IMG/VR virus record: IMGVR_UViG_2703718829_000008
Coordinates: 1-43,438 of that record
Reading direction: 5' to 3' (one strand)
From: a virus
Lineage: Duplodnaviria > Heunggongvirae > Uroviricota > Caudoviricetes
DNA length: 43,438 nt
The notes beneath the pieces were generated by a model, which was given only the letters and a program-made list of their open reading frames with translations, had not been told where the DNA came from and searched no databases. The position numbers and the translations under genes are program-made. The first letter of the stretch is position 1. Every line of letters begins with the position of its first letter. Shown one piece after another: positions 1-37,156 of the stretch.

Positions 1-1083
1 ATGTCGTCTAATAATCGACTCCATTATCTTGATGGTATTCGTGGCTGGGCCGCAACTATTGTTGTCTTCGGGCACACCATGGGGGGCGTGATTGCAATTG
101 ACGCACCTAATTTTGTAAATCATCAATGGATGAGCTTTTTTACAAATGCTCATCTTGCTGTTTTGGTATTTTTTGTTTTATCAGGCTACGTCCTGAGCGT
201 TAGCCAAATCTACTCATCAAAACGTAATACTGCGGTATCCACCGTTGCAAGATTATTCAGATTGGCTCTTCCGATTCTGTTCGTAAGCCTTGTCGCATAT
301 ATCATGATGAGGTTAAACCTATTTTTCAATGTTCAAGCCGCTACTAATGACATATCGAAATCGTGGTTAGGGACATTTTTCAGGTTTGAGCCGTCACTAC
401 CTGGTGTATTTTCCTTTTCATTTTTCGATGTATTTTTCGCTTATGATACTCCGACATCATACAACTCTTCATTATGGACCATGCCTATAGAAATGGCTGG
501 GTCAATTCTAATTTATTCATACATAGCTATATTCAGAACTGAAAAATTCAACTGGATAATTTCTTCCATTTTAATAGTTTATTTCTATTTTTATAGCCCA
601 TTCATGTTCTGCTTTATGGTTGGGTATGTTCTGGCTGAACTGAAAAAAATTAACAACCTATACCTGAGTGGTAGAAATGAAATACCGTTGATATTTATTT
701 TCTTTGCCATGATCTATCTGGATACATACCATAGGCCGGTTGATGAGATTATTCAGGCGCTTGAGGCGGTAGTATTTGTTGTTGTAATATCTTACAGCAA
801 AACTTTATCATCGCTGTTCTCATCAAGAGCATCAAGATTTATGGGCAGGATTTCGTTTTCTCTATATCTAGTTCAGATACTGGTTATTTGCTCATGGTCT
901 TCGTACATGAAGATTTTACTATCAAACTCTGGTATTAATATAAATATTGCAGCCTCAATAAACCTCATATCATCCATGGCTTTGTGCATATTAACAGCAA
1001 GAGCCATGACTCCTATTGATGAATTTAGTGTTAAACACTCCAAAACCATTGCTTTTAAATTATTAAATTTATGCTCTAGGTAA
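1..1083 (+). CDS. Acyltransferase family 3 integral membrane protein (O-antigen acetylase-like lysogenic-conversion candidate)
   Basis: 360 aa, multi-pass hydrophobic, N-terminal 'LHYLDGIRGWAATIVVFGH' typical of acyltransferase_3; AT-rich; convergent with the tail fibre gene. Confidence 0.7.
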   Translation: MSSNNRLHYLDGIRGWAATIVVFGHTMGGVIAIDAPNFVNHQWMSFFTNAHLAVLVFFVLSGYVLSVSQIYSSKRNTAVSTVARLFRLALPILFVSLVAYIMMRLNLFFNVQAATNDISKSWLGTFFRFEPSLPGVFSFSFFDVFFAYDTPTSYNSSLWTMPIEMAGSILIYSYIAIFRTEKFNWIISSILIVYFYFYSPFMFCFMVGYVLAELKKINNLYLSGRNEIPLIFIFFAMIYLDTYHRPVDEIIQALEAVVFVVVISYSKTLSSLFSSRASRFMGRISFSLYLVQILVICSWSSYMKILLSNSGININIAASINLISSMALCILTARAMTPIDEFSVKHSKTIAFKLLNLCSR

Positions 1084-6759: not shown

Positions 6760-6946
6760 GGTAGGAATATCTTACCATCTTATTCCCATGCAGACATGGA
6801 ACGCCCTGCATAATTGGGACTTCATTAACAGTTAAATCCATGTACATAAAACTCTGTCGCTGAACAAGTTTTATATTACATTGCTGACCAGCCAGACTTA
6901 CCGAAATGGACTGAGATTTGCTGGGAAGAACAGATACTGTAATCAT
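6644..6946 (-). CDS. Small tail protein
   Basis: 100 aa ORF, 4-nt overlap with upstream gene. Confidence 0.3.
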   Translation of the reverse strand: MITVSVLPSKSQSISVSLAGQQCNIKLVQRQSFMYMDLTVNEVPIMQGVPCLHGNKMVRYSYLGFKGDLIFIDNDGESDPRWEGLGSRYLLYYIEENELV

Positions 6947-7758
6947 GTACTCGCCTTAACTATATTTTTTGCAATATCTGCCGCTTTTTTTGTTGCGCTG
7001 TTTGTGACTTCGAGTATTGGTTTGGATACCGTATCAAGAGCACTCTGAAATTCAGTCTTGATTGTGCCGGAGATTTTTCCAGTGATTTCGCCAACAGATG
7101 ACTTCAGTGATGACCATGATTTACTTAGCTCATCGACAGTAGATTCCCTGGCTCCGCCATTGGTTATTTGCGGATCAACTCCTACATCTCCCTGTGACTT
7201 ATTGTTATCCGTTGGCTTCTGTTCTGACTGAGGTCCAGAGAGGATAACCTCCATTTGCTGAATGACCTCCTGAAAATCAAGATAAACCGTCAGAAGAGTC
7301 ACCCCCTTTTGAGAGTTAACTTCGTAATAGTGGTCAACAAGGTCGAAACTCTCCAGAGTTTCCTTTGGCGTTTCAATATCGTATGTTTTTGCAGAGGACA
7401 GCATCGTTTTGATTGTGTTCAGCGTGCTGTTCTGGCTTGTGAATGTGAGATCGAAAATATTCGGGATGTTGCCGGAAAAACCAGTAAGACCATTTACGAT
7501 GATTGCGCATCTTACCCGGGCGGGTTCTTTAACTTTGTTGATGGACTGGTATTTCCCTTTCTCCACCGGAGCGTTTGTTATTTGCGCCCTTCCGCTTGGC
7601 TGTACGGATGCCATACCACTGAACTCAAGAGCAACCTCGCCAGTTTCCCTGTCACGAATCACATACTGAGGATGCAGAACGCTGTCGATGATCGAAAGCG
7701 GAGAGCCACCACCGATAGCATTGAATATGTCTGCTGTGTTTAAATCGATTATGCCCAT
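6943..7758 (-). CDS. Tail protein, first gene of the baseplate block
   Basis: 271 aa; ATG at 7758 immediately downstream of the bidirectional terminator. Confidence 0.3.
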   Translation of the reverse strand: MGIIDLNTADIFNAIGGGSPLSIIDSVLHPQYVIRDRETGEVALEFSGMASVQPSGRAQITNAPVEKGKYQSINKVKEPARVRCAIIVNGLTGFSGNIPNIFDLTFTSQNSTLNTIKTMLSSAKTYDIETPKETLESFDLVDHYYEVNSQKGVTLLTVYLDFQEVIQQMEVILSGPQSEQKPTDNNKSQGDVGVDPQITNGGARESTVDELSKSWSSLKSSVGEITGKISGTIKTEFQSALDTVSKPILEVTNSATKKAADIAKNIVKAST

Positions 7759-7770
7759 CTACTCTCCATT

Positions 7771-7805
7771 AAACAAAAACCCAGCCGAAGCTGGGTTGTT
7801 TTTTA
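7771..7805. terminator. Bidirectional rho-independent terminator
   Basis: Stem CCCAGC/GCTGGG with CGAA loop, flanked by A-tract (7771-7779) and T-tract (7796-7804). Confidence 0.55.
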
Positions 7806-7818
7806 TAAAAAGATTTAA

Positions 7819-8631
7819 TTAGGCTGCGGTAGAAACATTAACTAGATTTCTCAATACTTCAACTCCTTTTGAGTTGTAGCGGAATGCTTCCACCTGTTTG
7901 CTGGAATGCGCCGATTTATCCAGGAAGAACTTCCCGTACTGCTCAGTTTTGAGGTTGTTTGCGTTAGCAATGCGACCAATCTTGTTGGCCGTTACTCCAA
8001 GCTGCTCTGCAACCTCCCCTGCTGAGTAGTAATGCTCTTCTATTGCCGGAAGGGGTATTGCATTAAAACCAACGATCGGGTTGATTATGCTTGCGGCCGC
8101 AGTCTGCTTTGCTTCCGGCGCAAGATTTGGCATCAAATCGAACAGATTGGTAACAGCTTCAACCGTCATTTTCAATGTTCGCGCTTGACGATACTCAACA
8201 AGTCCACTCGCTGATTTACCGCTTTTAATGTGCGCTTCTTGCATACTTTCAAGTTGGTCTACCAGTGAGCGGCGAACGGCTTTTGACTCGCGAGCGGCAA
8301 CTCGAAGGGCTTGCTTAATTGACATAACAACTTTTTCAGAACTTGTCTTGTTTGATTTTTGAACTACGAAAATTTCGTAGTGCTCACCTTCAAGTTCATC
8401 CTTAATGCGTGCAATAAAGTCGTTATTGCGGACTTCTTTTTCCCCGCACTGTCTACGAGCATGATTGACCATCTCTAACAGGTACTGGCTATCAATGGGT
8501 TTATCCGTGACAACGGATCCGATGTTTGCTACATTCTTAAAAGTCATTAGGCATTCCTTATGTGGTAGTAAGGGTGTGACATAGGCCGCCAGCAGCACAC
8601 TGGCGGTTTTTTTCACCGCCAGATGCGTCAT
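7819..8631 (-). CDS. Putative regulatory/antirepressor-associated protein
   Basis: 270 aa; start overlaps ant-like stop (TAATG); C-terminal HTH-like segment. Confidence 0.35.
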   Translation of the reverse strand: MTHLAVKKTASVLLAAYVTPLLPHKECLMTFKNVANIGSVVTDKPIDSQYLLEMVNHARRQCGEKEVRNNDFIARIKDELEGEHYEIFVVQKSNKTSSEKVVMSIKQALRVAARESKAVRRSLVDQLESMQEAHIKSGKSASGLVEYRQARTLKMTVEAVTNLFDLMPNLAPEAKQTAAASIINPIVGFNAIPLPAIEEHYYSAGEVAEQLGVTANKIGRIANANNLKTEQYGKFFLDKSAHSSKQVEAFRYNSKGVEVLRNLVNVSTAA

Positions 8632-9554
8632 TAATACAGATGAACAGAAGGCGGCAATTCTTTATTCTTAAGCCTTATCCATGCGGAAAGATTTGTTGGT
8701 CCGTCTGGCTCATTGATATCAACATCTCGTGTGTGGTTGATTAAAACGTCTCTCGCCGTTCCGATAACATACGAGAACTCATGGCCGTAGTCGTAGCACC
8801 TGCCAGAATAGTTTGATTGAATGTGCTTTAGCGCCGGATACAGTTCGCGGAATAATGCCTGTGAGCGGTTGGCATAATCCCATAACCATACAAGGCTGTT
8901 TGCTTCTTTTGCAGAAAGCTCGTTGGTTTTCTTCTCTTGTTTGCCGATGAACTCACCTTCAAGTGGAACTCGAGCTGCAAGTGACAGTGCTTCGGCAAAC
9001 TGCTCCTCACTGATTTCTTTGTATGAACACCCAAAATGAGATTTCAGTGACGACCACATGGTGATCATCGCCTTAGCCTGTTTTTCTTTTGGCAGAGACT
9101 GACCTCGACTCATGACGAGTTGTTTAATGGCTTCCTGCTGTTCAGTGGTGATTTTCCCCGGCAACGCCTTTTTAGCTTTGCGTGGATTAACCACATGGCC
9201 TTTAGTCCAGTACTCGTAGAGCACATCGTCACACTCTTCCTGATACTGGATTACCTTGTCGCGGATTTCAGGACGGACTTTGTTAGGACTGATGCTGTTC
9301 AACCAAGCTGCCAATTTTCGTAAAGCCATACAAATCATGGCTTGCACCCCACCGGCAGAAGGTATGGTGATTTCCACCATACCCTTCGAGAAGCGTTGAG
9401 AAATCTTCTTATGTTGAGATTTCCAATCTAGCCCCATTCCCTCAACGATAGGTTTCATTGGGGTGTACGGTTCGCCGTTGTGATTGACAACATAAAGCTC
9501 TGCGCCGTGGAATGGTACATTGATAGTTGATACCGCTGTTGCTATACTTTTCAT
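8631..9554 (-). CDS. Antirepressor-like protein (AntA-type N-terminal domain)
   Basis: 307 aa; lies downstream of an Arc-like gene and divergent from an Mnt-like gene, as in P22 immI. Confidence 0.55.
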   Translation of the reverse strand: MKSIATAVSTINVPFHGAELYVVNHNGEPYTPMKPIVEGMGLDWKSQHKKISQRFSKGMVEITIPSAGGVQAMICMALRKLAAWLNSISPNKVRPEIRDKVIQYQEECDDVLYEYWTKGHVVNPRKAKKALPGKITTEQQEAIKQLVMSRGQSLPKEKQAKAMITMWSSLKSHFGCSYKEISEEQFAEALSLAARVPLEGEFIGKQEKKTNELSAKEANSLVWLWDYANRSQALFRELYPALKHIQSNYSGRCYDYGHEFSYVIGTARDVLINHTRDVDINEPDGPTNLSAWIRLKNKELPPSVHLY

Positions 9555-9620
9555 GTCAGTTTTTCCTCAATACTTACTGGCGATTTAAGCCCTAGATACT
9601 CGCAATATCTGGGGCTTTAC

Positions 9621-9767
9621 TCATTCTGGACAAACAATCCCGTCCTTAGCTACCGACTCCTTAAGCCTCCTCAACACCTCATTGCTGAATGACCGATCAT
9701 CCTTTTTCGCTGACTGCTCCAAAGCTTTTTCGAGCCATTCTGGCATCCTTAACGTTTTTACTTTCAT
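9621..9767 (-). CDS. Arc-like ribbon-helix-helix repressor (48 aa, below track cutoff)
   Basis: Hand translation MKVKTLRMPEWLEKALEQSAKKDDRSFSNEVLRRLKESVAKDGIVCPE; SD AGGAGC 4 nt upstream of ATG. Confidence 0.5.
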   Translation of the reverse strand: MKVKTLRMPEWLEKALEQSAKKDDRSFSNEVLRRLKESVAKDGIVCPE

Positions 9768-9780
9768 TTTCGCTCCTTTG

Positions 9781-9836
9781 GTATGCGGTACGCATACATA
9801 GTATGTAGGTACGCATTGATAGTCAATAGATACCTA
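9781..9836. promoter_or_regulatory. Divergent promoter/operator region between arc-like and mnt-like genes
   Basis: Three palindromes: GTATGC-n5-GCATAC (9781-9797), TACATA-G-TATGTA (9795-9807), ATTGA-TAG-TCAAT (9815-9827). Confidence 0.4.
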
Positions 9837-9872
9837 CATATCCTGTGGTAAAAAATTATTCAGGATACGCTG

Positions 9873-10115
9873 ATGTCTGAACGCAGGTACAAGAACCCAC
9901 AAGTTAATCTTCGACTTCCTGTGGAGATAAAGGATCGCCTAACCGCGTTAGCTGAGGCGAATGGCAGATCTTTAAATGCAGAAATGGTTGCAGCTCTAAG
10001 TGCGTGGGCAGAAGAAAATAAACATGTTCACTCACTTAGCCTTTCTTCCTTAACCGAAAGATTAATAGCTCTTGAGAGAGAGGTTGCAGCCCTTAAAGAA
10101 GCAAACATCAAGTAA
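9873..10115 (+). CDS. Mnt/Arc-family ribbon-helix-helix repressor
   Basis: 80 aa; 'LTALAEANGRSLNAEMV' resembles P22 Mnt 'AEANGRSMNSEL'; divergent from arc/ant. Confidence 0.6.
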   Translation: MSERRYKNPQVNLRLPVEIKDRLTALAEANGRSLNAEMVAALSAWAEENKHVHSLSLSSLTERLIALEREVAALKEANIK

Positions 10116-10138
10116 GAAGACGATATTACGAGGTTGCT

Positions 10139-10606
10139 ATGGCATGTCTTAGCAAGGAAGAAAATGAAATCATCAATGTAGAATTTAAAAAAGCATCAGC
10201 AGATGAGTTGCTGATAATCAAGAAATTAATTATCGATGTTAAGAACCATAAAGGGCTATACCAAGATGTCGTAAAGAATGGCGCAGACCTCTACAGTTCA
10301 AAACTTGACATCATGAGAGAAACCGGCTTAGAGGAGATGACCTCCGGTATTCTTGCGAGAACGCTTTGGGGTATCACGCGACCAGAAAAAGAGAACACAA
10401 GACACCTAAGGGTCGGGATTAATGAAGCTGAGTGGTGCTTTGTGGAATGCATATGTAGACACCCCGCTCACCGCCTTCTTCATGGAAAGAAATACGCCAT
10501 CCGCAAAGGAATGAAGATTGGTTTTTTCAAACACATCCACCCTGGACAACTTGTAGGGTGTGGATGTTTATCTAGCCCCATAATTCCAGGATTAAAAAAC
10601 ACTTGA
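10139..10606 (+). CDS. Hypothetical protein co-transcribed with mnt-like repressor
   Basis: 155 aa, AT-rich, SD GAGG upstream, 24 bp after mnt-like stop. Confidence 0.4.
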   Translation: MACLSKEENEIINVEFKKASADELLIIKKLIIDVKNHKGLYQDVVKNGADLYSSKLDIMRETGLEEMTSGILARTLWGITRPEKENTRHLRVGINEAEWCFVECICRHPAHRLLHGKKYAIRKGMKIGFFKHIHPGQLVGCGCLSSPIIPGLKNT

Positions 10607-10965
10607 TAGCGGCCGCAAAGCAGATTGCCACGAAGTTGTTTGCAAAAATACTCCATGACAAGTTAGGACTTGAATAAGTGCTCATGCCGTGCTGATAGCT
10701 CTACTAGCAACTTCATCGCTTCTACCGCGTCTGCCGAGGTTGATTTAGGTGACGCAACAATGGACCTGAGTGTGCTCTATAAACTACACAGGGATAGAGA
10801 ATATGCCAAATTTAGCTTTATCACGGCGGCTAAGTCTGTTTCATCATGGTTTGCGAGTTTGTCTGCTTCTCCTGGGGTATACCCACTCGCAACCAATCGT
10901 GCGTGCATCATCTCTTTGTAAGAGTGTTCAATTGCTTTCATGATAATAACCTATTGGTAATAACT

Positions 10966-10995
10966 TAAAAAAACCCACCTGACGGTGGGTTTTAT
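10966..10995. terminator. Bidirectional rho-independent terminator
   Basis: A7-CCCACC-TGAC-GGTGGG-T tract between convergent genes. Confidence 0.55.
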
Positions 10996-11414
10996 TAGTG
11001 CTTGTATAGGTTGAACTCTCTATCAAGCCATATAACAAAAAATGTCGATCCAAGACGATAACCAACCATGGCTTTCAAATCATCAAATCTAAAAGCCAAG
11101 AAATGATCTACGTCTTCCGTTATATGACTGGGGATACCTGCTTTAATTGCACACCTTGCAATCTTCTCAAATCCAAGCTTATGCCTACCTTGCTGCTTAA
11201 TCTCTGCCCATGTTAGTTGACTTAATCTGTATAATTTATCAGCTAAGCCAGCTTTCTCATCTTTTTGGCATTTCGTTATGCAGTGAGAGCTTTGGATGTA
11301 ACAGAATGAAAATTTCGGTTTCTTTTGATCTGAATTCCCCCCTGACTGCGGCCCTAACTTTAACTTACCTGTAGATTCAGCAGGGGGGATAATCCTTTTA
11401 GATTTTCTTGCCAT
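10995..11414 (-). CDS. Putative toxin partner of Panacea-domain protein
   Basis: Start taken at MARKSKR, 4 nt after upstream stop; basic N-terminal region; C-terminus (VGYRLGSTFFVIWLDREFNLYKH) reminiscent of RelE/YoeB-type strands. Confidence 0.35.
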   Translation of the reverse strand: MARKSKRIIPPAESTGKLKLGPQSGGNSDQKKPKFSFCYIQSSHCITKCQKDEKAGLADKLYRLSQLTWAEIKQQGRHKLGFEKIARCAIKAGIPSHITEDVDHFLAFRFDDLKAMVGYRLGSTFFVIWLDREFNLYKH

Positions 11415-11418
11415 CTCG

Positions 11419-11868
11419 TTAGTTAATCCGAGTTGCAAAGTACTCTGCCATCTCCTTAGAGCTAATTTCAGAACCACCAACACCCTCAATATAGTTTGAT
11501 CTCCATGGTGACTCTTCGTGTGTCATGTTCCTCAGTTTCCAGGCAGAAAATTGCCCAAAAACATCCCAGACTTCTTCTAATAGCTCTAACTGTTCTTCGC
11601 TGAATTTTTCAGCATCAAAAGACTCTGGAGAAGGGATAGCGCCATTACCATATTGTTTATAACGGCGATAAAGCTCAGGAACAACAGGGCCATGCATCCA
11701 GGCTTCCATCTTATTCTGAAAAAGAGGCTCGCCAAGCAACGCCAATGAAAAACCCTGAGCATAGTAAACAAGCTTTTGTAATTTTAAATTAGAGATTGTG
11801 TCACCGCTATCCTCGTCACACCGCGACAGGAAGTAGTCGGCGACATCAAAACAAGTAAGCATGAACAC
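11419..11868 (-). CDS. Panacea-domain (DUF4065, SocA/GepA-like) protein, putative antitoxin
   Basis: 149 aa; 'NLKLQKLVYYAQGFSLALLGEPLF...EAWMHGPVVPELY' matches the DUF4065 pattern as I recall it. Confidence 0.6.
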   Translation of the reverse strand: MFMLTCFDVADYFLSRCDEDSGDTISNLKLQKLVYYAQGFSLALLGEPLFQNKMEAWMHGPVVPELYRRYKQYGNGAIPSPESFDAEKFSEEQLELLEEVWDVFGQFSAWKLRNMTHEESPWRSNYIEGVGGSEISSKEMAEYFATRIN

Positions 11869-12286
11869 ACCTCCATCTTGATAGCCACAGCTAAGTATCC
11901 AACTATGTCAAATGTCATTTAATACTATAACAAAGCTATCAGCAATCCTTCGGAGGCTAACTTACAACCACTTTAGCGACATGTTTAAACCATTACGTTT
12001 CACATTTACTGCATTTTCGCTGAAGTTACCTATAAGGTAATGTCACATTTCCTGCAAGTTTCATGCAATGTTGAAAAGTGAGCTATTCACTTTTCTATGA
12101 CACCAAACACCAAAAATAGCACTTTTTGCTAAATCATTCGTCCAAGTTGTGGATGGTTTGTCGTTGACACGTTTTCACACACCACTCCACCAATAAAGTA
12201 TCATCTGCTATCCTACGCAAAACTAACTGTTGCGTGTTTTTTCTTCATTTAATGGGTAATTGAAATAACCAATACGGATCTCTAAA

Positions 12287-12688
12287 ATGAACATCTTAAA
12301 ATCTACCATCTCAATCCTCTTTCTGCTAAGCCCTTCCGTGTGCTTCTCGTCTGGCGGCCTTACTTCACATCAAGTTTTAGTGGATTGCAACAGAGCTTCA
12401 TCGTCCTTGGTTAGCTCCTATGAAAAGGACGTTCCATTGCAGGAGTCCAAAAGGATGGACCTCATACAGACAATATCCCGCGTATGCCAAGGTGCATACC
12501 AAAACGCTTACGATGGCATGCAGTATGAGGACATTGAAAGAGAGGTTTTATCAAGCGCCAAAAAACAAAAGAAAAATCTTCAAGGAGAAAGCAAAAAAAA
12601 TACCGAGAACAGAACCGGGCTAGTTCTTTCCGCCATTCAGGTAGGGTATTACATATACCATAATGGCGGTCTTGATAATAAAAAATAA
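12287..12688 (+). CDS. Secreted hypothetical protein (signal peptide)
   Basis: 133 aa; hydrophobic N-terminus ISILFLLSPSVCFSSGG; AT-rich; preceded by a 418-bp AT-rich intergenic region. Confidence 0.4.
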   Translation: MNILKSTISILFLLSPSVCFSSGGLTSHQVLVDCNRASSSLVSSYEKDVPLQESKRMDLIQTISRVCQGAYQNAYDGMQYEDIEREVLSSAKKQKKNLQGESKKNTENRTGLVLSAIQVGYYIYHNGGLDNKK

Positions 12689-12708
12689 TCGTCATTATGA
12701 CATGATCG

Positions 12709-14526
12709 TTAAGGTGTTACACCACTAGAAAATGCCGCGTTTGTTGATACCCGGCTAACTTGCTGATTGACACTTCTGGTAAGAGCATCAACTGTTGTCG
12801 GGTTACTGTTAACAACTACCGTGCCAATAGTTGTACTGCTGCTACGGCTGTTGTCAATTTTTGATGTTGTCTGGCTTGGTGTTGAGGCGATGCGTTGCAG
12901 CTGCTGATAGTAAGCCAACGTCTCGTTTTCTTTTGCATTAAGAGCGGCGCGAATCTTTGGCACATATTCTCGCGTCTCTTTCGGTAAGGTGTTCCAGTAT
13001 TTGGATGATGGTGAATCAAACCCGGTACTGGATATATATTTTAACTTTTTGTCTACATTGCCCATCCCCCAGTTGTAAGCCATCAGCGCATGATTAACAT
13101 TGCCTTTATAGTGCTTTAGCAAATCCCTCATGAACCTTTCAGAAGCAGCGCGAGATTTTACCTCATCAAGACGCTCATCAATCCCATCACCGACCTTTAA
13201 CCCGTACGCTATGGCAGTATCCTTCATGAACTGATACGGACCAACAGCACCTTTCGGGCTGTAAAGTTTTTTACCACCACTCGATTCCACCTCACGAATG
13301 GCATCAAGAAGAGAATCCATGCTTACAGGCTTTACTCCGTCAGGGAGAGGGATATCTGGCTGAATGTTATTGCCATAAATCTCATCTCCCCTACGCCCAA
13401 AATCGGTGTCAAACCCCATGCTGCGCATGGTATCTCCAAGTTCACGCTTAGAGTAATCAAAAGATCCTTTAGCTGCACCCTCAATGTTTTCCCTGTCATT
13501 GTAGAGGTACAAACCATATGCTATTAACCCAGCCAACCATGGAGGAAGGGCGCCGCCTGTAAGTTTGCTTCCTACATATGCTGCTGCCAATAGCTTCAGA
13601 GCCTCTTCCGCGCCACCAACTGCCTTTGTGAATTGCTTCGTCATATTCCCGGCGTCATTGAAAAAGCCAATGATGTCGCCATGATGTTTCTCAATCCAGG
13701 AACCAAAAGCCTTCATTCCGTCAATAACGTCAGGAGCGAATGCCACGGCTAAATTTTGCTTTAATCGGGAAAACTCTGAATCAAGTTGCCCAAGAGTGGC
13801 AGCAACCTTCTCCTGCTCTTTTACCTGCTGTGCTGTAATACGGGATTTCTTTGTTTCTGAATCGACAAGCTGCTTAAGTTCCCCTGATTTTATTTTAGCG
13901 GCATCTGTCGGATCGAACCCTGCGGCAGCCATCACCTGCATCAGGTTTTCTTGAGAATGAGTCTTGCCATAGCGAGAAAACTCAGCAAGAGCCTTGTTTG
14001 GGTCGCCGAGCTTATTGATATCTAATCCGGTACGAGCGCCAAGAACCAGCAAATTTTGGGCAGCGCCAGTAAGCCCTCCCATAACAGTTGGATCGGCAAT
14101 ATTTGCCAAAGCCATTCTGGCATTCCCAGAAGATGAAATGAACGAGTCACCGTTAAGACCAGCCTGGCGAAATCCCCGCTGAACACCAAACATCTTATTA
14201 ACATCAGAACCGAAAAACTTGGCCTGTTGACTGGCTCTCACGATTTCGTTGGCAGTAGATGTAAAAAGTTGCTTGATTCCATACAACCCGGCGCCAATTC
14301 CCAAAAATCCAGCGGCTGCGGTTGTCACGTTGCGGAAAGCTGAAACAGCGGTTTTACCGAACCTCTCCGTTTCCTGCCGCTGTTTTTCAAGTTCCTTTAG
14401 CCTTTCCTTCTCAGCCCTGGAAAGATCTTTGTTTAATTTACTAACTTCATCTTTTACTTTCCGTTTTCCATTCAGGAATTCATCGGCCTTAATTGTGACC
14501 TTGTAGGCCAACTCATTGATAATCAT
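12709..14526 (-). CDS. Tail tape measure protein with lytic transglycosylase (SLT) domain
   Basis: 605 aa; coiled-coil N-terminus; 'EVESSGGKKLYSPKGAVGPYQFMKDTAIAYG' SLT-like motif; follows frameshifted chaperone pair. Confidence 0.55.
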   Translation of the reverse strand: MIINELAYKVTIKADEFLNGKRKVKDEVSKLNKDLSRAEKERLKELEKQRQETERFGKTAVSAFRNVTTAAAGFLGIGAGLYGIKQLFTSTANEIVRASQQAKFFGSDVNKMFGVQRGFRQAGLNGDSFISSSGNARMALANIADPTVMGGLTGAAQNLLVLGARTGLDINKLGDPNKALAEFSRYGKTHSQENLMQVMAAAGFDPTDAAKIKSGELKQLVDSETKKSRITAQQVKEQEKVAATLGQLDSEFSRLKQNLAVAFAPDVIDGMKAFGSWIEKHHGDIIGFFNDAGNMTKQFTKAVGGAEEALKLLAAAYVGSKLTGGALPPWLAGLIAYGLYLYNDRENIEGAAKGSFDYSKRELGDTMRSMGFDTDFGRRGDEIYGNNIQPDIPLPDGVKPVSMDSLLDAIREVESSGGKKLYSPKGAVGPYQFMKDTAIAYGLKVGDGIDERLDEVKSRAASERFMRDLLKHYKGNVNHALMAYNWGMGNVDKKLKYISSTGFDSPSSKYWNTLPKETREYVPKIRAALNAKENETLAYYQQLQRIASTPSQTTSKIDNSRSSSTTIGTVVVNSNPTTVDALTRSVNQQVSRVSTNAAFSSGVTP

Positions 14527-14741
14527 CGCTGCTCCTGATGTTTATTCCAGACCCGCTTGTTAAATGATTCCACCGAGATAATTTCCAGAAGGTTATACAT
14601 ATCACGAACAGATAACCGTTCCTGCAAATCGGTATAAGTGGCTTTTCCTGAACAGATAATGGCGTTCATTGATGGTGTGACGTTTACGGGGCTAACGAGT
14701 TTTGCCGGAAGAGTCTCCTCCTCCATGAACGGGTACTTCAC
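14523..14741 (-). CDS. Tail assembly chaperone -1 frame extension (T-like part of G/GT)
   Basis: ORF in -1 frame relative to upstream chaperone, starts GTG; reached from slippery site at 14756-14762. Confidence 0.45.
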   Translation of the reverse strand: MKYPFMEEETLPAKLVSPVNVTPSMNAIICSGKATYTDLQERLSVRDMYNLLEIISVESFNKRVWNKHQEQR

Positions 14742-15145
14742 TCTCCGGCGATCGTTAAAAAATCAAAATTGACTTTAAATACCTTATCCATTACCTGACG
14801 AATGGTTGATACCTCTTCAAAGTCGACAGGCTTCACGGTTCGCACCTGTCTGCTGCCTTCGTGTGTAATCACAATTTGCACAGTTGACATCAGGCGATCA
14901 CGAAGTTTTCTGGCGACTTCCGGCGATGCAGCAGAAATAACATTCAGACCAAGGGTGGCAAGGCCAGCGCACCCCATGGCAATAACATCAGCAGGAATAC
15001 CAGAGAATCCCGATTCCCCCATGGAGCGGAATAAATCCTGTGCCAGTTCGTCGGCATCCCATGCCGACATCTCTGTGATAATGAACTCCTTCCCATTGTC
15101 GCGATTATCGTCTTCCACGATAAAGGGGATTTCTTTACGTGCCAT
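14738..15145 (-). CDS. Tail assembly chaperone (G-like)
   Basis: 135 aa acidic protein between tube and tape measure. Confidence 0.5.
   Translation of the reverse strand: MARKEIPFIVEDDNRDNGKEFIITEMSAWDADELAQDLFRSMGESGFSGIPADVIAMGCAGLATLGLNVISAASPEVARKLRDRLMSTVQIVITHEGSRQVRTVKPVDFEEVSTIRQVMDKVFKVNFDFLTIAGE
14756..14762 (-). promoter_or_regulatory. Candidate programmed -1 ribosomal frameshift site (T_TTT_TTA)
   Basis: Heptamer lies 6 codons before the chaperone stop; -1 reading continues ...FFNDRRRVKYPFMEEE into the downstream ORF. Confidence 0.5.
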
Positions 15146-15579
15146 CAGATAGTGCTCCGTGTTACAGACTCAAAGTGAAATACTGCCGGGCGTGGTTGCA
15201 GTACGCGCCGACCCGGAGGAGTTGGAGTCCATGTATAAAGAACCCCGTTCACAAAATTCCACTTCGCGCCGAGAGCCGGAACTGTAAGCACCGCATTACA
15301 CTGAAACGCTGAAATTGCAGTTCTCTCCGCTGCATACCAGTCATCAATCAGCGAGCCAGCATTGGATGTGGGCATCAGGTTGATGGTGAACTCTGTCGGG
15401 TTAAAGATAAAACCAGCATGGTATTTACCGTCCGCTGACATCATGTCTTCTTTGTTCTGTAGTGCGCCAGTTTCAAACATGTTATCAGCTGCGTAGTCGT
15501 CAACATCAAAACCGCCAGGGTAGTAAGCGGGTACGACGATTCGCAGCTTACTGTTTGCCGAGGTGATATCTATAGGCAT
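15145..15579 (-). CDS. Tail tube protein
   Basis: 144 aa, immediately downstream of sheath-like gene. Confidence 0.4.
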   Translation of the reverse strand: MPIDITSANSKLRIVVPAYYPGGFDVDDYAADNMFETGALQNKEDMMSADGKYHAGFIFNPTEFTINLMPTSNAGSLIDDWYAAERTAISAFQCNAVLTVPALGAKWNFVNGVLYTWTPTPPGRRVLQPRPAVFHFESVTRSTI

Positions 15580-15590
15580 GATTTATTCCC

Positions 15591-17081
15591 TTATAAAATC
15601 GCGGTTGAGGACATTGTGATGGACTGGATTAACTGACCATCGACATAATAAAAAATGACACCTTTCAGATCGCGCTCAATGCGTGCAGAGCCTGACTGTG
15701 TCGGGATGTACAGGAACCAGCCCTGTGAATACAGCGTCGATGAGATATCTTTTCCAACTGTGTTATTCACAATTCTGGTTTGCGCATTATCAAGTTTCAC
15801 GCCACGCTGAATAGCCCCGAAATTGAGAGCCTGTTCAGCAACATCAATAACAGCAGCAGAAACTGCGCCGTATCCTGTCTCATTGAACGGGTAAGACTGG
15901 TTATTGGTGAACAGGTTGGCAAAAGCACTAACCAGATTGGCATTAATCCATACCTGATTAATAAAACTGTCCAGCCATACAAACTTGCCAGTAATGGCGC
16001 CATCAGATGCGTACTGCGCCATTGTTTTGTTCAGGCTGTATGAGCCGTAGAAGTTGTAACCGTTTGACTTCAGTGCCTGAGCGGTCGCCAGATCGCTTAC
16101 GTTGGGTGCTAACCCTGAAAATCCACGGAACTTGAACGAGATACGCCCATTGGTGCGTGCAAAATCCACGGATGCAGCATATGCCAGTGCTGTAACGCTA
16201 TACAGGTATGTTCCGTACACCGGAAAAATGTTCTCGTAGCCATTTGCCACAACCACTTTCTGCACAAAGCAATTGGCATTATTGGCTACCGTTCCTGCTG
16301 AAGTGGTGTCGTGAACAACATATCCAAACCGGTTTTTACTGCTGCTTGCCCATGCGCACAATTCTGTTTTCTGGTCATCGGCCAGTTCGACCAGCGAGTT
16401 AAACAGGATCCAGTTCTGGTTGACGTTGATGATGTTGTTCATCGTGTCTGTCAGAGTTACCGCATCAGAACCCGGTGATACAATCGCTGCGGAATCCTGC
16501 GTCAGTAATAACCCGGCAGCCAGAGCGCCAGCAGAGGCATAAGACACTTCACTCTCTGCGCCAGTAGTGGCAGAGCGAATGATGAATCGGTTAGCGATTG
16601 GCAACCATTCAACCACCACCTTGCTTGCACCAATTCCAACCTGCAACTTGGACGCAATGTCACTAAAACTTGTGGCTGTGGACAAATCAATTGATGTGCT
16701 GGTAGTCGACTCACCGTCAATGGAAAGGGTGATTGTTCCTGCTGGAATCGCTTTCAGTGTTGCCAGGGCAACACCTTTCAGGTTGCCGGACAGAAGATAC
16801 CCAGCCACTGGTGAAGTAACAATACGATACATCAGCAGTTCACCAGGAATAACGGATGAATTTTCGTATCCGTTAAAATACTGTTGTGCTGCGAGGAATT
16901 CTTTCGATTCACTCCCCATCAAAGCTGATACATCAGATGAGGAGTAATAAGATTGTACCGCGCCAACCGGGATAAGCTCGTTATCGGTCAACATCAGGCC
17001 GTTAGCATCAACCGCAGAACCGGCAGGCGTAACGACATTGGGCGTGATATTAAAATCTACAGATAAAGGGATTGTGCTCAT
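15591..17081 (-). CDS. Tail sheath protein
   Basis: 496 aa, size and synteny (sheath-tube-chaperone-tape measure). Confidence 0.45.
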   Translation of the reverse strand: MSTIPLSVDFNITPNVVTPAGSAVDANGLMLTDNELIPVGAVQSYYSSSDVSALMGSESKEFLAAQQYFNGYENSSVIPGELLMYRIVTSPVAGYLLSGNLKGVALATLKAIPAGTITLSIDGESTTSTSIDLSTATSFSDIASKLQVGIGASKVVVEWLPIANRFIIRSATTGAESEVSYASAGALAAGLLLTQDSAAIVSPGSDAVTLTDTMNNIINVNQNWILFNSLVELADDQKTELCAWASSSKNRFGYVVHDTTSAGTVANNANCFVQKVVVANGYENIFPVYGTYLYSVTALAYAASVDFARTNGRISFKFRGFSGLAPNVSDLATAQALKSNGYNFYGSYSLNKTMAQYASDGAITGKFVWLDSFINQVWINANLVSAFANLFTNNQSYPFNETGYGAVSAAVIDVAEQALNFGAIQRGVKLDNAQTRIVNNTVGKDISSTLYSQGWFLYIPTQSGSARIERDLKGVIFYYVDGQLIQSITMSSTAIL

Positions 17082-22184: not shown

Positions 22185-23003
22185 TCATTTTCTATCTATC
22201 CCAGGGATAACAGGAGACCACGTACAACGGCAGTTGATAGCCTCTCCCGGCAGCACCCATTCACCATCGAGATACAGCCCTTTATCGAGGTCGAACTCTT
22301 TACCGTCAGCTTTCACATGGGATGGTCTTGGCTGCTTCCCGGCGTGTGAGTGACGCCAGATTCCTTTGGTGATTCCTAACTTCTTCTGCCGTTCAGACTG
22401 AATTACCGCTGTAGCTTTGTTGTTCTGATCGCGTGCAATCGTCTCAGCGCGTCTGCGTGTAATGCCATATCGCTTAACCAGTTCATCAGTGAGATAGCCA
22501 AGGTCACGACCACGGCTGACAGACTGCATGACTATCGTCTCAACCTGTGTGTGATAGTGTTCAGGTATGGATTTAATCAGGTTGACGTTCTCGTTAACGA
22601 CAGCCTGCATCACGTTCTTAAGCTCGTCATTCATTGTGAACTTAACGGTAAATCCGCCAGCCTTTAACGCTGAGTGTAACGAAACGTCGGTGTTGCGCAG
22701 TGTCTTATCAACAAAGCGATCAGCCAGTTTCTTAGCCAGTTCATTGAATTTATGCTCCCACTGCTTGCCTAGTCTGGACAATCTGCGCTTTAACTCATTC
22801 GCGGGACTGGAATCCATCGCCATGTTGTTTTTGTATGCGCCCTCAAGCCAGTATCGGTATGACTTATCCATCTCCCTAACCAGCTTGAGAAGCTCAGAGC
22901 GATACCACTCATGAACTCCGGCGTTGGCTCTGACTGGACGAAGGATTTTCCGGTTCTTCGAATCCTTCTTCGATGGACTCGTTTTCGTACTCTTCTTCGT
23001 CAT
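22185..23003 (-). CDS. Phage Mu gpF-like head morphogenesis protein
   Basis: 272 aa; C-terminal '[10 protein letters not shown]' and '[17 protein letters not shown]' typical of Mu F-like minor head proteins. Confidence 0.55.
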
Positions 23004-29199: not shown

Positions 29200-29823
29200 C
29201 TAACGTGTGACCGCATTCAAAATGTTGTCTGCGATTGACTCTTCTTTGTGGCATTGCACCACCAGAGCGTCATACAGCGGCTTAACAGTGCGTGACCAGG
29301 TGGGTTGAGTAAGGTTTGGGATTAGCATCGTTACAGCGCGATATGCGGCGCTTGCTGGCATTCTTGAATAGCCGACACCTTTGCATCTTCCGCACTCTTT
29401 CTCAACAACTCTCCCCCACTGCTCTGTTTTGGCTATATCAACCGCACGGCCTGTACCGTGGCAATCTCTGCATCTTGCGCCCGGCGTCGCGGCACTACGG
29501 CAATAATCCGCATAAGCGAATGTTGCGAGCACTTGCAGTACCTTTGCCTTAGTATTTCCTTCAAGCTTTGCCACACCACGGTATTTCCCCGATACCTTGT
29601 GTGCAAATTGCATCAGATAGTTGATAGCCTTTTGTTTGTCGTTCTGGCTGAGTTCGTGCTTACCACAGAATGCAGCCATTCCGAATCCGGCTTGTGATTG
29701 CGCCATCCCCATAGCAGCCATCACATCAGTACCGGAAAGAGAGTCAGAAGCCGTAGCCCGTGGTGAGTCGCTCATCATCGGGCTTTTTGGCGAATGAAAT
29801 TTAGCTACGCTTTCGAGTCTCAT
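29200..29823 (-). CDS. Q: Late antiterminator Q (lambda Q-like)
   Basis: 207 aa; appears near-identical to lambda Q from memory (MRLESVAKFHSPKSPMMSDSPRATASD...). Confidence 0.9.
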   Translation of the reverse strand: MRLESVAKFHSPKSPMMSDSPRATASDSLSGTDVMAAMGMAQSQAGFGMAAFCGKHELSQNDKQKAINYLMQFAHKVSGKYRGVAKLEGNTKAKVLQVLATFAYADYCRSAATPGARCRDCHGTGRAVDIAKTEQWGRVVEKECGRCKGVGYSRMPASAAYRAVTMLIPNLTQPTWSRTVKPLYDALVVQCHKEESIADNILNAVTR

Positions 29824-36448: not shown

Positions 36449-37156
36449 ATGGTTCAGAATGAAAAAGTGCGCAAAGAATTCGCCCAGCGGCTAGCGCAAG
36501 CCTGTAAAGAAGCTGGTCTTGATGAACATGGTAGGGGGATGGCCATAGCCCGTGCCCTTTCTCTTTCGTCCAAAGGCGTTAGCAAATGGTTTAATGCTGA
36601 GTCTTTACCGCGTCAGGAAAAAATGAATGCGCTTGCGAAATTTCTAAACGTTGATGTTGTTTGGCTTCAGCACGGCACTTCGTTAAATGGAGCGAATGAT
36701 GAAGATACTCTTTCATTTGTTGGCAAATTAAAAAAAGGGTTAGTGCGCGTGGTTGGTGAGGCAATTCTTGGTGTTGATGGTGCCATCGAGATGACCGAAG
36801 AGCGCGATGGGTGGCTCAAAATTTATAGCGATGATCCAGATGCCTTTGGTCTTCGTGTGAAAGGAGACAGCATGTGGCCCAGAATAAAATCAGGAGAATA
36901 TGTACTCATTGAGCCTAACACCAAAGTATTCCCGGGTGATGAGGTGTTTGTCAGAACCGTTGAAGGACACAACATGATTAAGGTTCTTGGCTATGACAGA
37001 GATGGAGAATACCAGTTTACAAGCATCAACCAGGACCACAGACCAATAACGTTGCCTTATCATCAAGTAGCAAAGGTGGAGTATGTGGCTGGTATTCTGA
37101 AGCAGTCCCGCCATCTGGATGACATCGAGGCAAGGGAGTGGCTGAGAGATTCCTGA
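36449..37156 (+). CDS. cI: CI-type repressor (HTH + S24 LexA-like autopeptidase domain)
   Basis: 235 aa; N-terminal HTH, C-terminal 'RVKGDSMWPRIKSGEYVLIEP' S24 peptidase motif. Confidence 0.85.
   Translation: MVQNEKVRKEFAQRLAQACKEAGLDEHGRGMAIARALSLSSKGVSKWFNAESLPRQEKMNALAKFLNVDVVWLQHGTSLNGANDEDTLSFVGKLKKGLVRVVGEAILGVDGAIEMTEERDGWLKIYSDDPDAFGLRVKGDSMWPRIKSGEYVLIEPNTKVFPGDEVFVRTVEGHNMIKVLGYDRDGEYQFTSINQDHRPITLPYHQVAKVEYVAGILKQSRHLDDIEAREWLRDS

Follow-up and report, generated by a model that had tools for sequence, protein, structure and literature searches.

A probable ant moron between the tape-measure and baseplate genes of a lambdoid prophage with a contractile-tail module

Gene content of the island

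The subject of this study is a block of non-structural genes that lies within the tail genes of a prophage and resembles the immI region of phage P22. The prophage is represented by IMG/VR virus record IMGVR_UViG_2703718829_000008, of which positions 1 to 43,438 were analysed (the window; all positions are those of this stretch, and strands are given as (+) or (-)). It is a lambdoid prophage with the virion genes of a contractile-tail (myovirus-type) phage, and the structural genes of the window are all on the minus strand, as are the genes ant and arc and the Panacea-type toxin–antitoxin (PanAT) pair of the block. A first-pass annotation had described an island of about 5 kb between the baseplate genes (to 7758) and the tape-measure gene (from 12709), which agrees with measurement, as the stop of the tape-measure gene (12709) and the start of the gene for a Dit-like baseplate protein (7758) are exactly 4950 bp apart. 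The order in the P22 record is gene 16, sieA (antisense), a terminator, orf59a and mnt (antisense), Pant/Pmnt with Oarc and Omnt, arc, sar (antisense), ant, a terminator and gene 9. The island matches the annotated immI region of P22 element for element in order and orientation, its counterparts of sar, the promoters and the operators being putative, and with Ant, Arc and Mnt passing both profile and pairwise tests, the earlier description of an immI-like module was well founded.

The antirepressor gene ant (8631-9554 (-)) specifies a full-length protein of 307 aa with the domains P22_AR_N (5.7e-45) and P22_AR_C (1.8e-29), which is 57% identical to P22 Ant from end to end (307/300 aa, E 2e-117, BLASTP). 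It had been labelled 'AntA-type', but this is imprecise because the protein is of the P22-Ant type by its P22_AR domains, and no AntA Pfam match was found in it. The ant operon starts 66 nt upstream, on the same strand, with a gene for a 48-aa Arc-like ribbon-helix-helix (RHH) repressor (9621-9767 (-)). This protein scores 25.1 bits against Pfam Arc, above the cutoff of 20.4, shares 31% identity with P22 Arc over 39 aa (E 6e-6, BLASTP), and is 100% identical (tblastn) to the RefSeq-annotated Arc family DNA-binding protein of relatives. Divergent from arc and ant is a gene for a Mnt-like RHH repressor of 80 aa (9873-10115 (+)), with the position and orientation of P22 mnt, a Pfam Arc domain (1.8e-10) and 47% identity to P22 Mnt over residues 8-39 (E 5e-12). 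Both RHH genes were thus correctly recognized in the first-pass annotation.

The intergenic control region between arc and mnt is 105 nt long. Within 9781-9844, matches to a consensus pattern give two divergent sites of sigma-70-like type that overlap, one leftward (9826-9798) and one rightward (9816-9844); the same stretch contains a perfect 7-3-7 palindrome of 17 bp (9781-9797) that aligns with the position of the P22 mnt operator and an imperfect 18-3-18 palindrome (9802-9840); the region also includes a 21-nt tandem repeat containing GGTACGCAT. The two palindromes are candidate operators for Mnt and Arc, the pairing of each protein with a site being putative. Between arc and ant, and spanning the ribosome-binding region of ant, is a putative sar-like antisense RNA (9555-9621 (+)). 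In its favour are a position and strand that agree with those of P22 sar, a stable fold of two hairpins (-24.3 kcal/mol, z -5.7), a terminator stem whose differences from that of P22 are paired, and a sar of 70.1 bits (Rfam RF00262) in the same slot of sister prophage L011 (loci of the comparison set are given by such numbers where needed). A promoter-like site inside the 5' end of ant (9520-9548) is directed into the element.

Next to ant, towards the baseplate genes, is a second antirepressor-like gene (7819-8631 (-)). The open reading frame (ORF) specifies 270 aa and matches phrog_1726 ('anti-repressor', 4.2e-96) from residue 29, with no match in Pfam; the true start is probably at 8547, which gives the 242 aa annotated in relatives. 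The left boundary of the island is formed by a terminator hairpin (7778-7797), with A and T runs on either side, about 20 nt ahead of the ribosome-binding site of the Dit-like gene. The stem was scored on both strands, as would be expected of the bidirectional terminator proposed earlier at this bound. It is kept across genera, even in near-empty sites, with changes on both sides in three of its seven stem pairs. A match to the Rfam rsmX model at 7775-7884 (28.7 bits, against a gathering score of 56) was taken as chance, since the alignment is limited to the boundary terminator and a short 5' hairpin, with nothing to match the central part of the model.

The remaining cargo is more diverse. 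A gene for a Panacea (SocA/DUF4065) antitoxin (11419-11868 (-)), co-oriented with the late operon, matches Pfam SocA_Panacea (1.9e-24) and, under its cutoff, NCBIfam SocA_antitoxin; a 98-99% identical protein is found in phage Emek and in Escherichia coli relatives. The candidate toxin gene (10995-11414 (-)) begins 4 nt after the Panacea stop. With the ATG at 11414 as its start it encodes 139 aa, as in the RefSeq annotation of relatives; the ORF as drawn mechanically is longer and reaches 11489. The gene matches phrog_8366 (1.2e-65), a family of uncharacterised function, and, weakly, PADLOC NsnC (1.2e-5). The genes make up a candidate Panacea-type pair, in line with the first reading of them, and their toxicity and neutralisation are putative. 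The RefSeq accessions of the homologous pair in relatives (WP_000954425 and WP_024173453) are absent from the text of PMC8832971, which lists the nine validated PanAT pairs. After the toxin gene comes an intrinsic terminator (10970-10993 (-)) with 10 pairs and a T run, which is also an internal segment joint (see below), and the Emek record annotates a terminator at the corresponding place. A doubtful ORF of 54 aa (10777-10941 (-)), present in the ORF list only, gave no family match; a 94% identical frame occurs, unannotated, in L011 and L036.

On the mnt strand, 23 nt downstream of mnt and co-oriented with it, is a gene of 155 aa (10139-10606 (+)) that matches phrog_324 ('head morphogenesis', 1.1e-8). 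Its product is a free-standing paralogue of the Phage_Mu_F (MuF) domain in the phage's own minor head protein (22185-23003 (-); PF04233, 3.8e-15), to which it aligns over 109 aa (BLASTP E 8e-9). The corresponding place after mnt is taken by a ClpP-like protease in the P22-like prophages of E. coli. It could be speculated that copies of head-morphogenesis domains expressed in the lysogen are assembly decoys against other phages. At the right end of the island, an ORF of 133 aa (12287-12688 (+)) runs antisense to the late operon, at the position held by sieA in P22, and has an N terminus that, by eye, resembles a signal peptide. It matched no family in the Pfam, PHROG and NCBIfam profiles, and its start is uncertain because RefSeq relatives annotate just a 77-aa, C-terminal version. 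The segment 12228-12708 is common to the window, L003, L005, L007 and L008. Many relatives have a signal-peptide or lipoprotein gene adjoining the stop of the tape-measure gene, usually antisense (Rouxiella, Enterobacter asburiae, Pluralibacter, Yersinia nurmii and Vibrio phage IKEMa6-1; coordinates of such genes are L017 9494-9901, L030 2937-3395, L040 6055-6447, L016 7878-8645 and L018 3155-3715). These genes have no detectable relation to one another and, because they sit at the sieA position of P22, are candidates for superinfection exclusion. PADLOC and NCBIfam searches of the unknown cargo gave weak or sub-threshold matches only (SspC, mad1 and the NsnC match already mentioned).

The right flank of the island is the tape-measure gene (12709-14526 (-)), specifying 605 aa with a C-terminal SLT transglycosylase domain (Pfam 2.9e-19); the strongest match of the protein is to a PHROG 'lytic tail protein' family (4.6e-191), with tape-measure families weaker. 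It closes a block of genes for the sheath (15591-17081 (-); DUF3383, 9e-107), the tube (15145-15579 (-); E217_Gp32) and the tail assembly chaperone (14738-15145 (-)), the last lying between the tube and tape-measure genes and being followed by an ORF of 72 aa. The Dit-like gene on the left (6943-7758 (-)) opens the baseplate block and is succeeded, in transcription order, by genes for a Pam3_gp18-type plug, hub, spike, wedge and Baseplate_J. Its product matches phrog_1830 (2.4e-73), is 66% identical to GF-2 gp24, and scores 22.6 bits (1.2e-4) against Pfam PF21821 (Dit_like), slightly under the 24.2-bit cutoff. The tail module is of the type found in GF-2/Edno5 (Gofduovirus), E217 and Pam3, markers of which were detected (DUF3383 sheath, E217_Gp32-type tube, Pam3_gp18 plug and Baseplate_J), and the sheath is 73-75% identical to those of GF-2 and Edno5. 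The ST64B/SfV-type and P22-like phages, named as relatives in the first-pass annotation, had to be abandoned as comparators for the backbone: a nucleotide search of the phage collection gave no match to the tail flanks, and the Dit-like protein finds 14 phage records, none of them ST64B or SfV. Lambdoid features elsewhere in the window are a Q antiterminator (29200-29823; PF03589, 1.3e-57), CII, DnaB, RusA, a lysozyme and a CI-like repressor with HTH_3 and S24 domains (36449-37156). Beyond the 384-aa ORF that ends the tail cluster (1697-2851), and on the opposite strand, is an Acyl_transf_3 gene (1-1083 (+), 1.2e-22), which is probably an O-antigen acetylase gene of the lysogenic-conversion kind.

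The slot in relatives and its segment joints

A megablast search of 5426 complete E. coli genomes found the backbone (Dit-like and plug genes) in 21, and 14 loci were fetched which, with the window, made a sample of 15. The slot is filled in all 15 (1.7-4.9 kb in the fetched 14) and holds 13 different gene sets, which bears out the earlier proposal of a hotspot for cargo. Among the variants, Ant is accompanied by the Arc and Mnt of the window, by a YlcI/YnfO-like and an 82-aa Arc-family protein, or by a 53-aa protein together with an Arc-family protein of 106 aa; other variants have just the Panacea pair, just a P63C-domain gene, or various mixes with DUF2513 and unknown genes. Three more RHH allele pairs were seen in further loci, and ant is broken in several of the E. 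coli loci. In EC16 (L004 5340-6423) and EcE.CRE.COL (L007 4311-5394), Mnt is replaced next to ant by a 269-aa repressor with HTH_3 and Peptidase_S24 domains, and the Arc position is held by a 57-aa protein without a family match. A LexA/CI-like (S24) repressor at the Mnt position suggests that the antirepressor of these sisters is under SOS-cleavable, damage-responsive control.

The sample was widened by a scan with the Dit-like protein, one genome per species, which added 20 loci, and by five loci from phage records. The gap between the tape-measure and Dit-like genes was found to range from -1 to 4950 bp over 30 loci of more than 15 genera. At the lower end, the two genes overlap (ATGA, -1) in five copies from Arsenophonus, and lie 0 bp apart in Klebsiella phage ST15-VIM1phi2.1, 1 bp in Pantoea phage PA-1, 25 bp in Sodalis, 57 bp in Phaseolibacter, 71 bp in Izhakiella, 103 bp in Symbiopectobacterium purcellii and 184-285 bp in three other relatives. 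Gaps of about 450-570 bp, in Rouxiella, E. asburiae and Vibrio phage IKEMa6-1, have the signal-peptide or lipoprotein gene as their lone sizeable ORF. Larger slots occur in Edno5 (1746 bp), Pluralibacter (2126 bp; a secreted protein, mnt-like, arc-like and ant), GF-2 (2368 bp) and Y. nurmii (3243 bp; a secreted protein, a CI-like repressor, an RHH protein and two antirepressor-like genes); in all four of these, the slot has ant together with regulators of the RHH or CI-like kind. That the island is an accessory block set into a contractile-tail cluster is upheld by the adjacent or overlapping arrangement of the same flanking genes in Arsenophonus, PA-1, the Klebsiella phage, Sodalis, Phaseolibacter and Izhakiella. 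The comparison with insert-less relatives that had been proposed thus found empty junctions in distant ones. The placement of the genes is not special to this prophage and is shared with the Edwardsiella phages GF-2 and Edno5. Further details of this sample are mentioned for completeness. The Klebsiella phage and Izhakiella capsodis, both of which have an empty junction here, carry antirepressor-type genes at other places in the tail cluster. In the Klebsiella phage this is a Rha-family gene between the tube and chaperone genes (L014 3718-4831), and in I. capsodis an Ant (76% identity over 209 aa) that is found with a Mnt-like gene some 5 kb downstream from the plug gene (L019 16213-17356). 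A 647-kb contig in a record titled Chryseobacterium sp. 18061 (L015, CACSKA010000002.1) carries a prophage with proteins 76-94% identical to those of this enterobacterial family, so that the label or the assembly of that record may be wrong.

The occurrence of an ant/RHH module in the same slot in E. coli, the Edwardsiella phages, Pluralibacter and Yersinia, with a flanking protein 66-77% identical, could mean that the region is ancestral and vertically inherited, the empty junctions of Arsenophonus, Sodalis, Izhakiella and others being secondary losses, many of them in the decaying prophages of symbionts. The boundary terminator persists in the near-empty sites of Izhakiella, S. purcellii and Ewingella, where it could be a remnant of lost cargo. 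However, the most distant relatives have the genes tightly coupled and without a hairpin (the Klebsiella phage at 34% identity, PA-1 at 41%, Phaseolibacter and Arsenophonus), and the records of PA-1 and the Klebsiella phage represent isolated or complete phages, not decayed remnants. The tightest junctions are those of relatives with the most divergent flanking genes, and by this ranking of identities the contiguous arrangement is probably the ancestral one. Within E. coli, moreover, the content changes segment by segment at near-identical flanks. Descent of a loaded slot from a common ancestor, with repeated loss, is rather unlikely on this evidence.

How the content changes is seen from the joints. 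BLASTN of the window against all loci gave recurring break points at 7797-7800, about 8640, 9567, 10609, 10964-10968, 12226-12258 and 12709-12723, and the island is therefore a concatenation of segments that are found separately elsewhere; the second antirepressor-like gene, for example, is a separate segment in L003, L004, L010 and L037. On the left, the homology of all relatives to the window stops at 7797-7808, and on the right it resumes at 12709-12723. Positions 10964-12226 are 99.0-99.3% identical to the P22-like podophages Emek and phiv205-1, which also share the 3' end of ant (8640-8963) at 93-95% identity; the arc and mnt alleles of the window are not shared with them. A wider query of 11 kb matched, in some part and mostly by island segments, 1488 E. 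coli genomes, chiefly in other types of prophage, and transfer is likely to have been from this abundant lambdoid pool into the rare backbone. The joints fall close to, or directly at, the ends of genes and terminator hairpins. Terminators and joints coincide in that hairpins sit at the break points and that E. coli TB354 and SC407 carry, directly before the Dit-like gene, the hairpin allele that the window has at 10970-10993. That hairpin and the one at 7775-7802 are 79% alike and are the sole repeat that spans the island; a causal role of terminators in recombination is putative. The tape-measure gene is itself mosaic. A 591-aa allele found in some E. coli sister prophages, annotated as a hypothetical protein (L006 4985-6760, L011 6023-7798 and L037 11759-13534), has about 45% identity in its first 315 residues and no tblastn match to the SLT region of the window, and the right-hand joint can therefore fall inside the gene.

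Sharp boundaries, self-contained regulators and cargo, and a part that is 99% identical to unrelated podophages are also what might be seen if a discrete mobile element, such as a transposon, integrative element or satellite, had inserted once into the tail operon. This is very improbable. The Pfam, PHROG and NCBIfam profiles detected no integrase, transposase or recombinase gene in the island, and no flanking direct or terminal inverted repeats were found at it; relatives differ by single segments rather than by presence or absence of the whole; no phage record covers 80% of the island query, the best reaching 24%; and 80% of the wider query is covered by just three E. coli records, all of them sister prophages with shared tail-gene flanks.

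Interpretation as an ant moron

Villafane et al. 2008 (PMC2629481) used the term 'ant moron' for a part of the P22-like phage genome that lies between gene 16 and the tailspike gene, is non-structural and changes rapidly. We consider it very probable that the island described here is such an ant moron, a fast-changing slot for non-structural cargo in a Q-dependent late operon, with a complete P22-type immI switch as its core. Several observations weigh against this. The sar-like RNA scores 28.7 bits (E 0.013) with Rfam RF00262, for which the gathering score is 43 and with which P22 sar gave 97.8 bits. Promoter-like sites number nine, where 9.9 were expected from shuffled sequence, and the control region gives no evidence of covariation, because the relatives that share it are 99% identical. 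The alignment of the Mnt-like protein to P22 Mnt does not take in the C-terminal part by which the latter tetramerises, so that the oligomeric state of the Mnt-like protein and the assignment of operators are guesses. The gene ant is a pseudogene or fragment in sister prophages L003, L011 and L036, which shows that the switch can decay and might be inert here despite its intact frames. Finally, the island is not marked off from its neighbours by a break in GC content or in that of third codon positions (GC3). Compositional breaks had been anticipated at its two ends, and this check was uninformative, with 0.429 for the island, 0.425 for the baseplate side and 0.471 for the side from the tape-measure to the sheath gene, and with overlapping GC3 values. 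A deviating base composition is typical of morons, though not a requirement.

Some of these points would suit an alternative in which there is no working immunity switch, the RHH genes and Ant having decayed or been re-purposed, for example with the RHH proteins as antitoxins or regulators of the neighbouring cargo. RHH domains are common in antitoxins, and weak NCBIfam matches to RelB-like and FitA-like families were obtained; the broken ant of some sisters and the low sar score point the same way. In the window, however, the frames are intact and full length relative to P22, and every regulatory element of P22 immI has at least a candidate counterpart in place. Three other prophages, moreover, have an Arc-like protein 100% identical to that of the window and a Mnt-like protein 96-99% identical. 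A decayed or diverted module is accordingly judged improbable.

If the island is indeed an ant moron with an immI core, its working can be outlined by analogy. The anatomy, homology, synteny, presence or absence in relatives, and joints reported above were observed directly; each expression and binding step that follows is taken over from P22 by homology. In the lysogen, Mnt made from the rightward promoter would bind the palindrome at the ant promoter and keep ant silent, and other genes on the mnt strand (the MuF-domain gene and the 133-aa ORF beside the tape-measure gene) would be expressed as well. Upon infection, or loss of Mnt, the leftward promoter would fire briefly and produce Arc, Ant and probably the second antirepressor-like protein. 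Ant would then bind and inactivate CI-type repressors, its target being the HTH+S24 repressor of the phage itself (36449-37156) or the repressors of other lambdoid prophages in the same host. Afterwards, Arc would shut the promoter and the sar antisense RNA would block translation of ant. Late in infection, Q-modified polymerase is expected to read through the island and both terminators (10970-10993 and 7778-7797) into the baseplate and fibre genes, which without Q would be insulated by these terminators from the cargo promoters. The content of the slot would be renewed as it recombines with lambdoid and P22-like prophages, of which there is a large pool.

A bolder, joint reading can also be offered, although as a whole it is decidedly doubtful. 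The boundary hairpin might be a dedicated landing pad for terminator-to-terminator swaps of ant morons between lambdoid phages of the podovirus and myovirus types, a loaded slot might throttle Q read-through and so set the amount of baseplate relative to sheath and tube, and several of the cargo genes might be defences directed at assembly or entry (the envelope protein by the tape-measure gene, and MuF and ClpP-like decoys).

Comparison with known systems

Both the ant moron (Villafane et al. 2008, PMC2629481) and the presence of immI in the Edno5 lineage (PMC6372524) are already known, and the present finding leaves the understanding of immI or of morons unchanged. The points specific to this study are the near-identical segments shared across morphotypes, the conserved internal boundary terminator, and the graded series from empty to loaded slots. 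This rare family of E. coli prophages is a natural series for studying the gain and loss of cargo in late operons, the insulating or tuning of structural genes by internal terminators, and the roles of recurrent prophage-expressed genes.

The morons of lambda and HK97 and the hotspots of P2 and P4 are alike in having a fixed position between conserved genes and interchangeable, independently terminated cargo that includes genes of the toxin–antitoxin type. In contrast to these, the present slot has an antirepressor switch as its organising element and interrupts the tail operon midway instead of adjoining its ends. SOS-controlled antirepressors of Gifsy/Fels-type prophages have reportedly been described by Lemire et al. 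in 2011, and the likeness to them is found in sisters EC16 and EcE.CRE.COL, with HTH_3+Peptidase_S24 proteins at the Mnt position, whereas in the window the version present is that with RHH proteins (Mnt/Arc), and nothing points to SOS control.

Among phages with the same tail module, GF-2 and Edno5 are the closest parallel. The Edno5 paper (PMC6372524, 2019) reported a P22-like ImmI region with Ant, Mnt and Arc, and RefSeq places the immI genes of both phages between the lytic tail protein and baseplate genes. As in the window, mnt-like, arc-like and ant genes lie between the SLT tape-measure and Dit-like genes, and the boundary terminator is present. Their slots are smaller, however (1.7-2.4 kb), and are without the Panacea pair, second antirepressor and MuF-domain gene. 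There is no room for sar, as arc and ant overlap or abut, and their Ant has no tblastn match to the window Ant at E<=1e-4. A literature search gave just the immI statement of the Edno5 paper, and no paper was found in which the slot of this myovirus family is presented as a hotspot.

The likeness to the ant moron of P22 itself extends beyond the genes. Both regions are inside the late operon, where they are preceded by the gene of a protein ejected from the virion along with the DNA and followed by the genes of the distal tail; both have a terminator ahead of the next tail gene and an antisense gene, probably expressed by the prophage, at the sieA position; and both vary greatly in content, with ten types in sixteen P22-like genomes (PMC2629481) and 13 gene sets in the 15 E. 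coli loci of this study. The PanAT segment of the window recurs, at 99% identity, in the ant morons of Emek and phiv205-1. The differences are that P22 has the podovirus neighbours gene 16 and tailspike, whereas the island is flanked by the tape-measure and baseplate genes of a contractile-tail module; that arc and mnt have diverged (31% and 47% identity), as has the putative sar (28.7 bits), and the candidate operators differ; and that the island has additional cargo in its second antirepressor-like gene, MuF-domain gene and Panacea toxin–antitoxin pair. The P22 ant moron may affect late read-through into the tailspike gene (PMC2629481), the one downstream ORF that depends on it, compared with about nine that would do so here (eight of them for baseplate and fibre). 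The P22 ant moron is thus not tied to podovirus virion genes, since the same switch, in part on nearly the same DNA, is found in the equivalent place of a myovirus tail operon.

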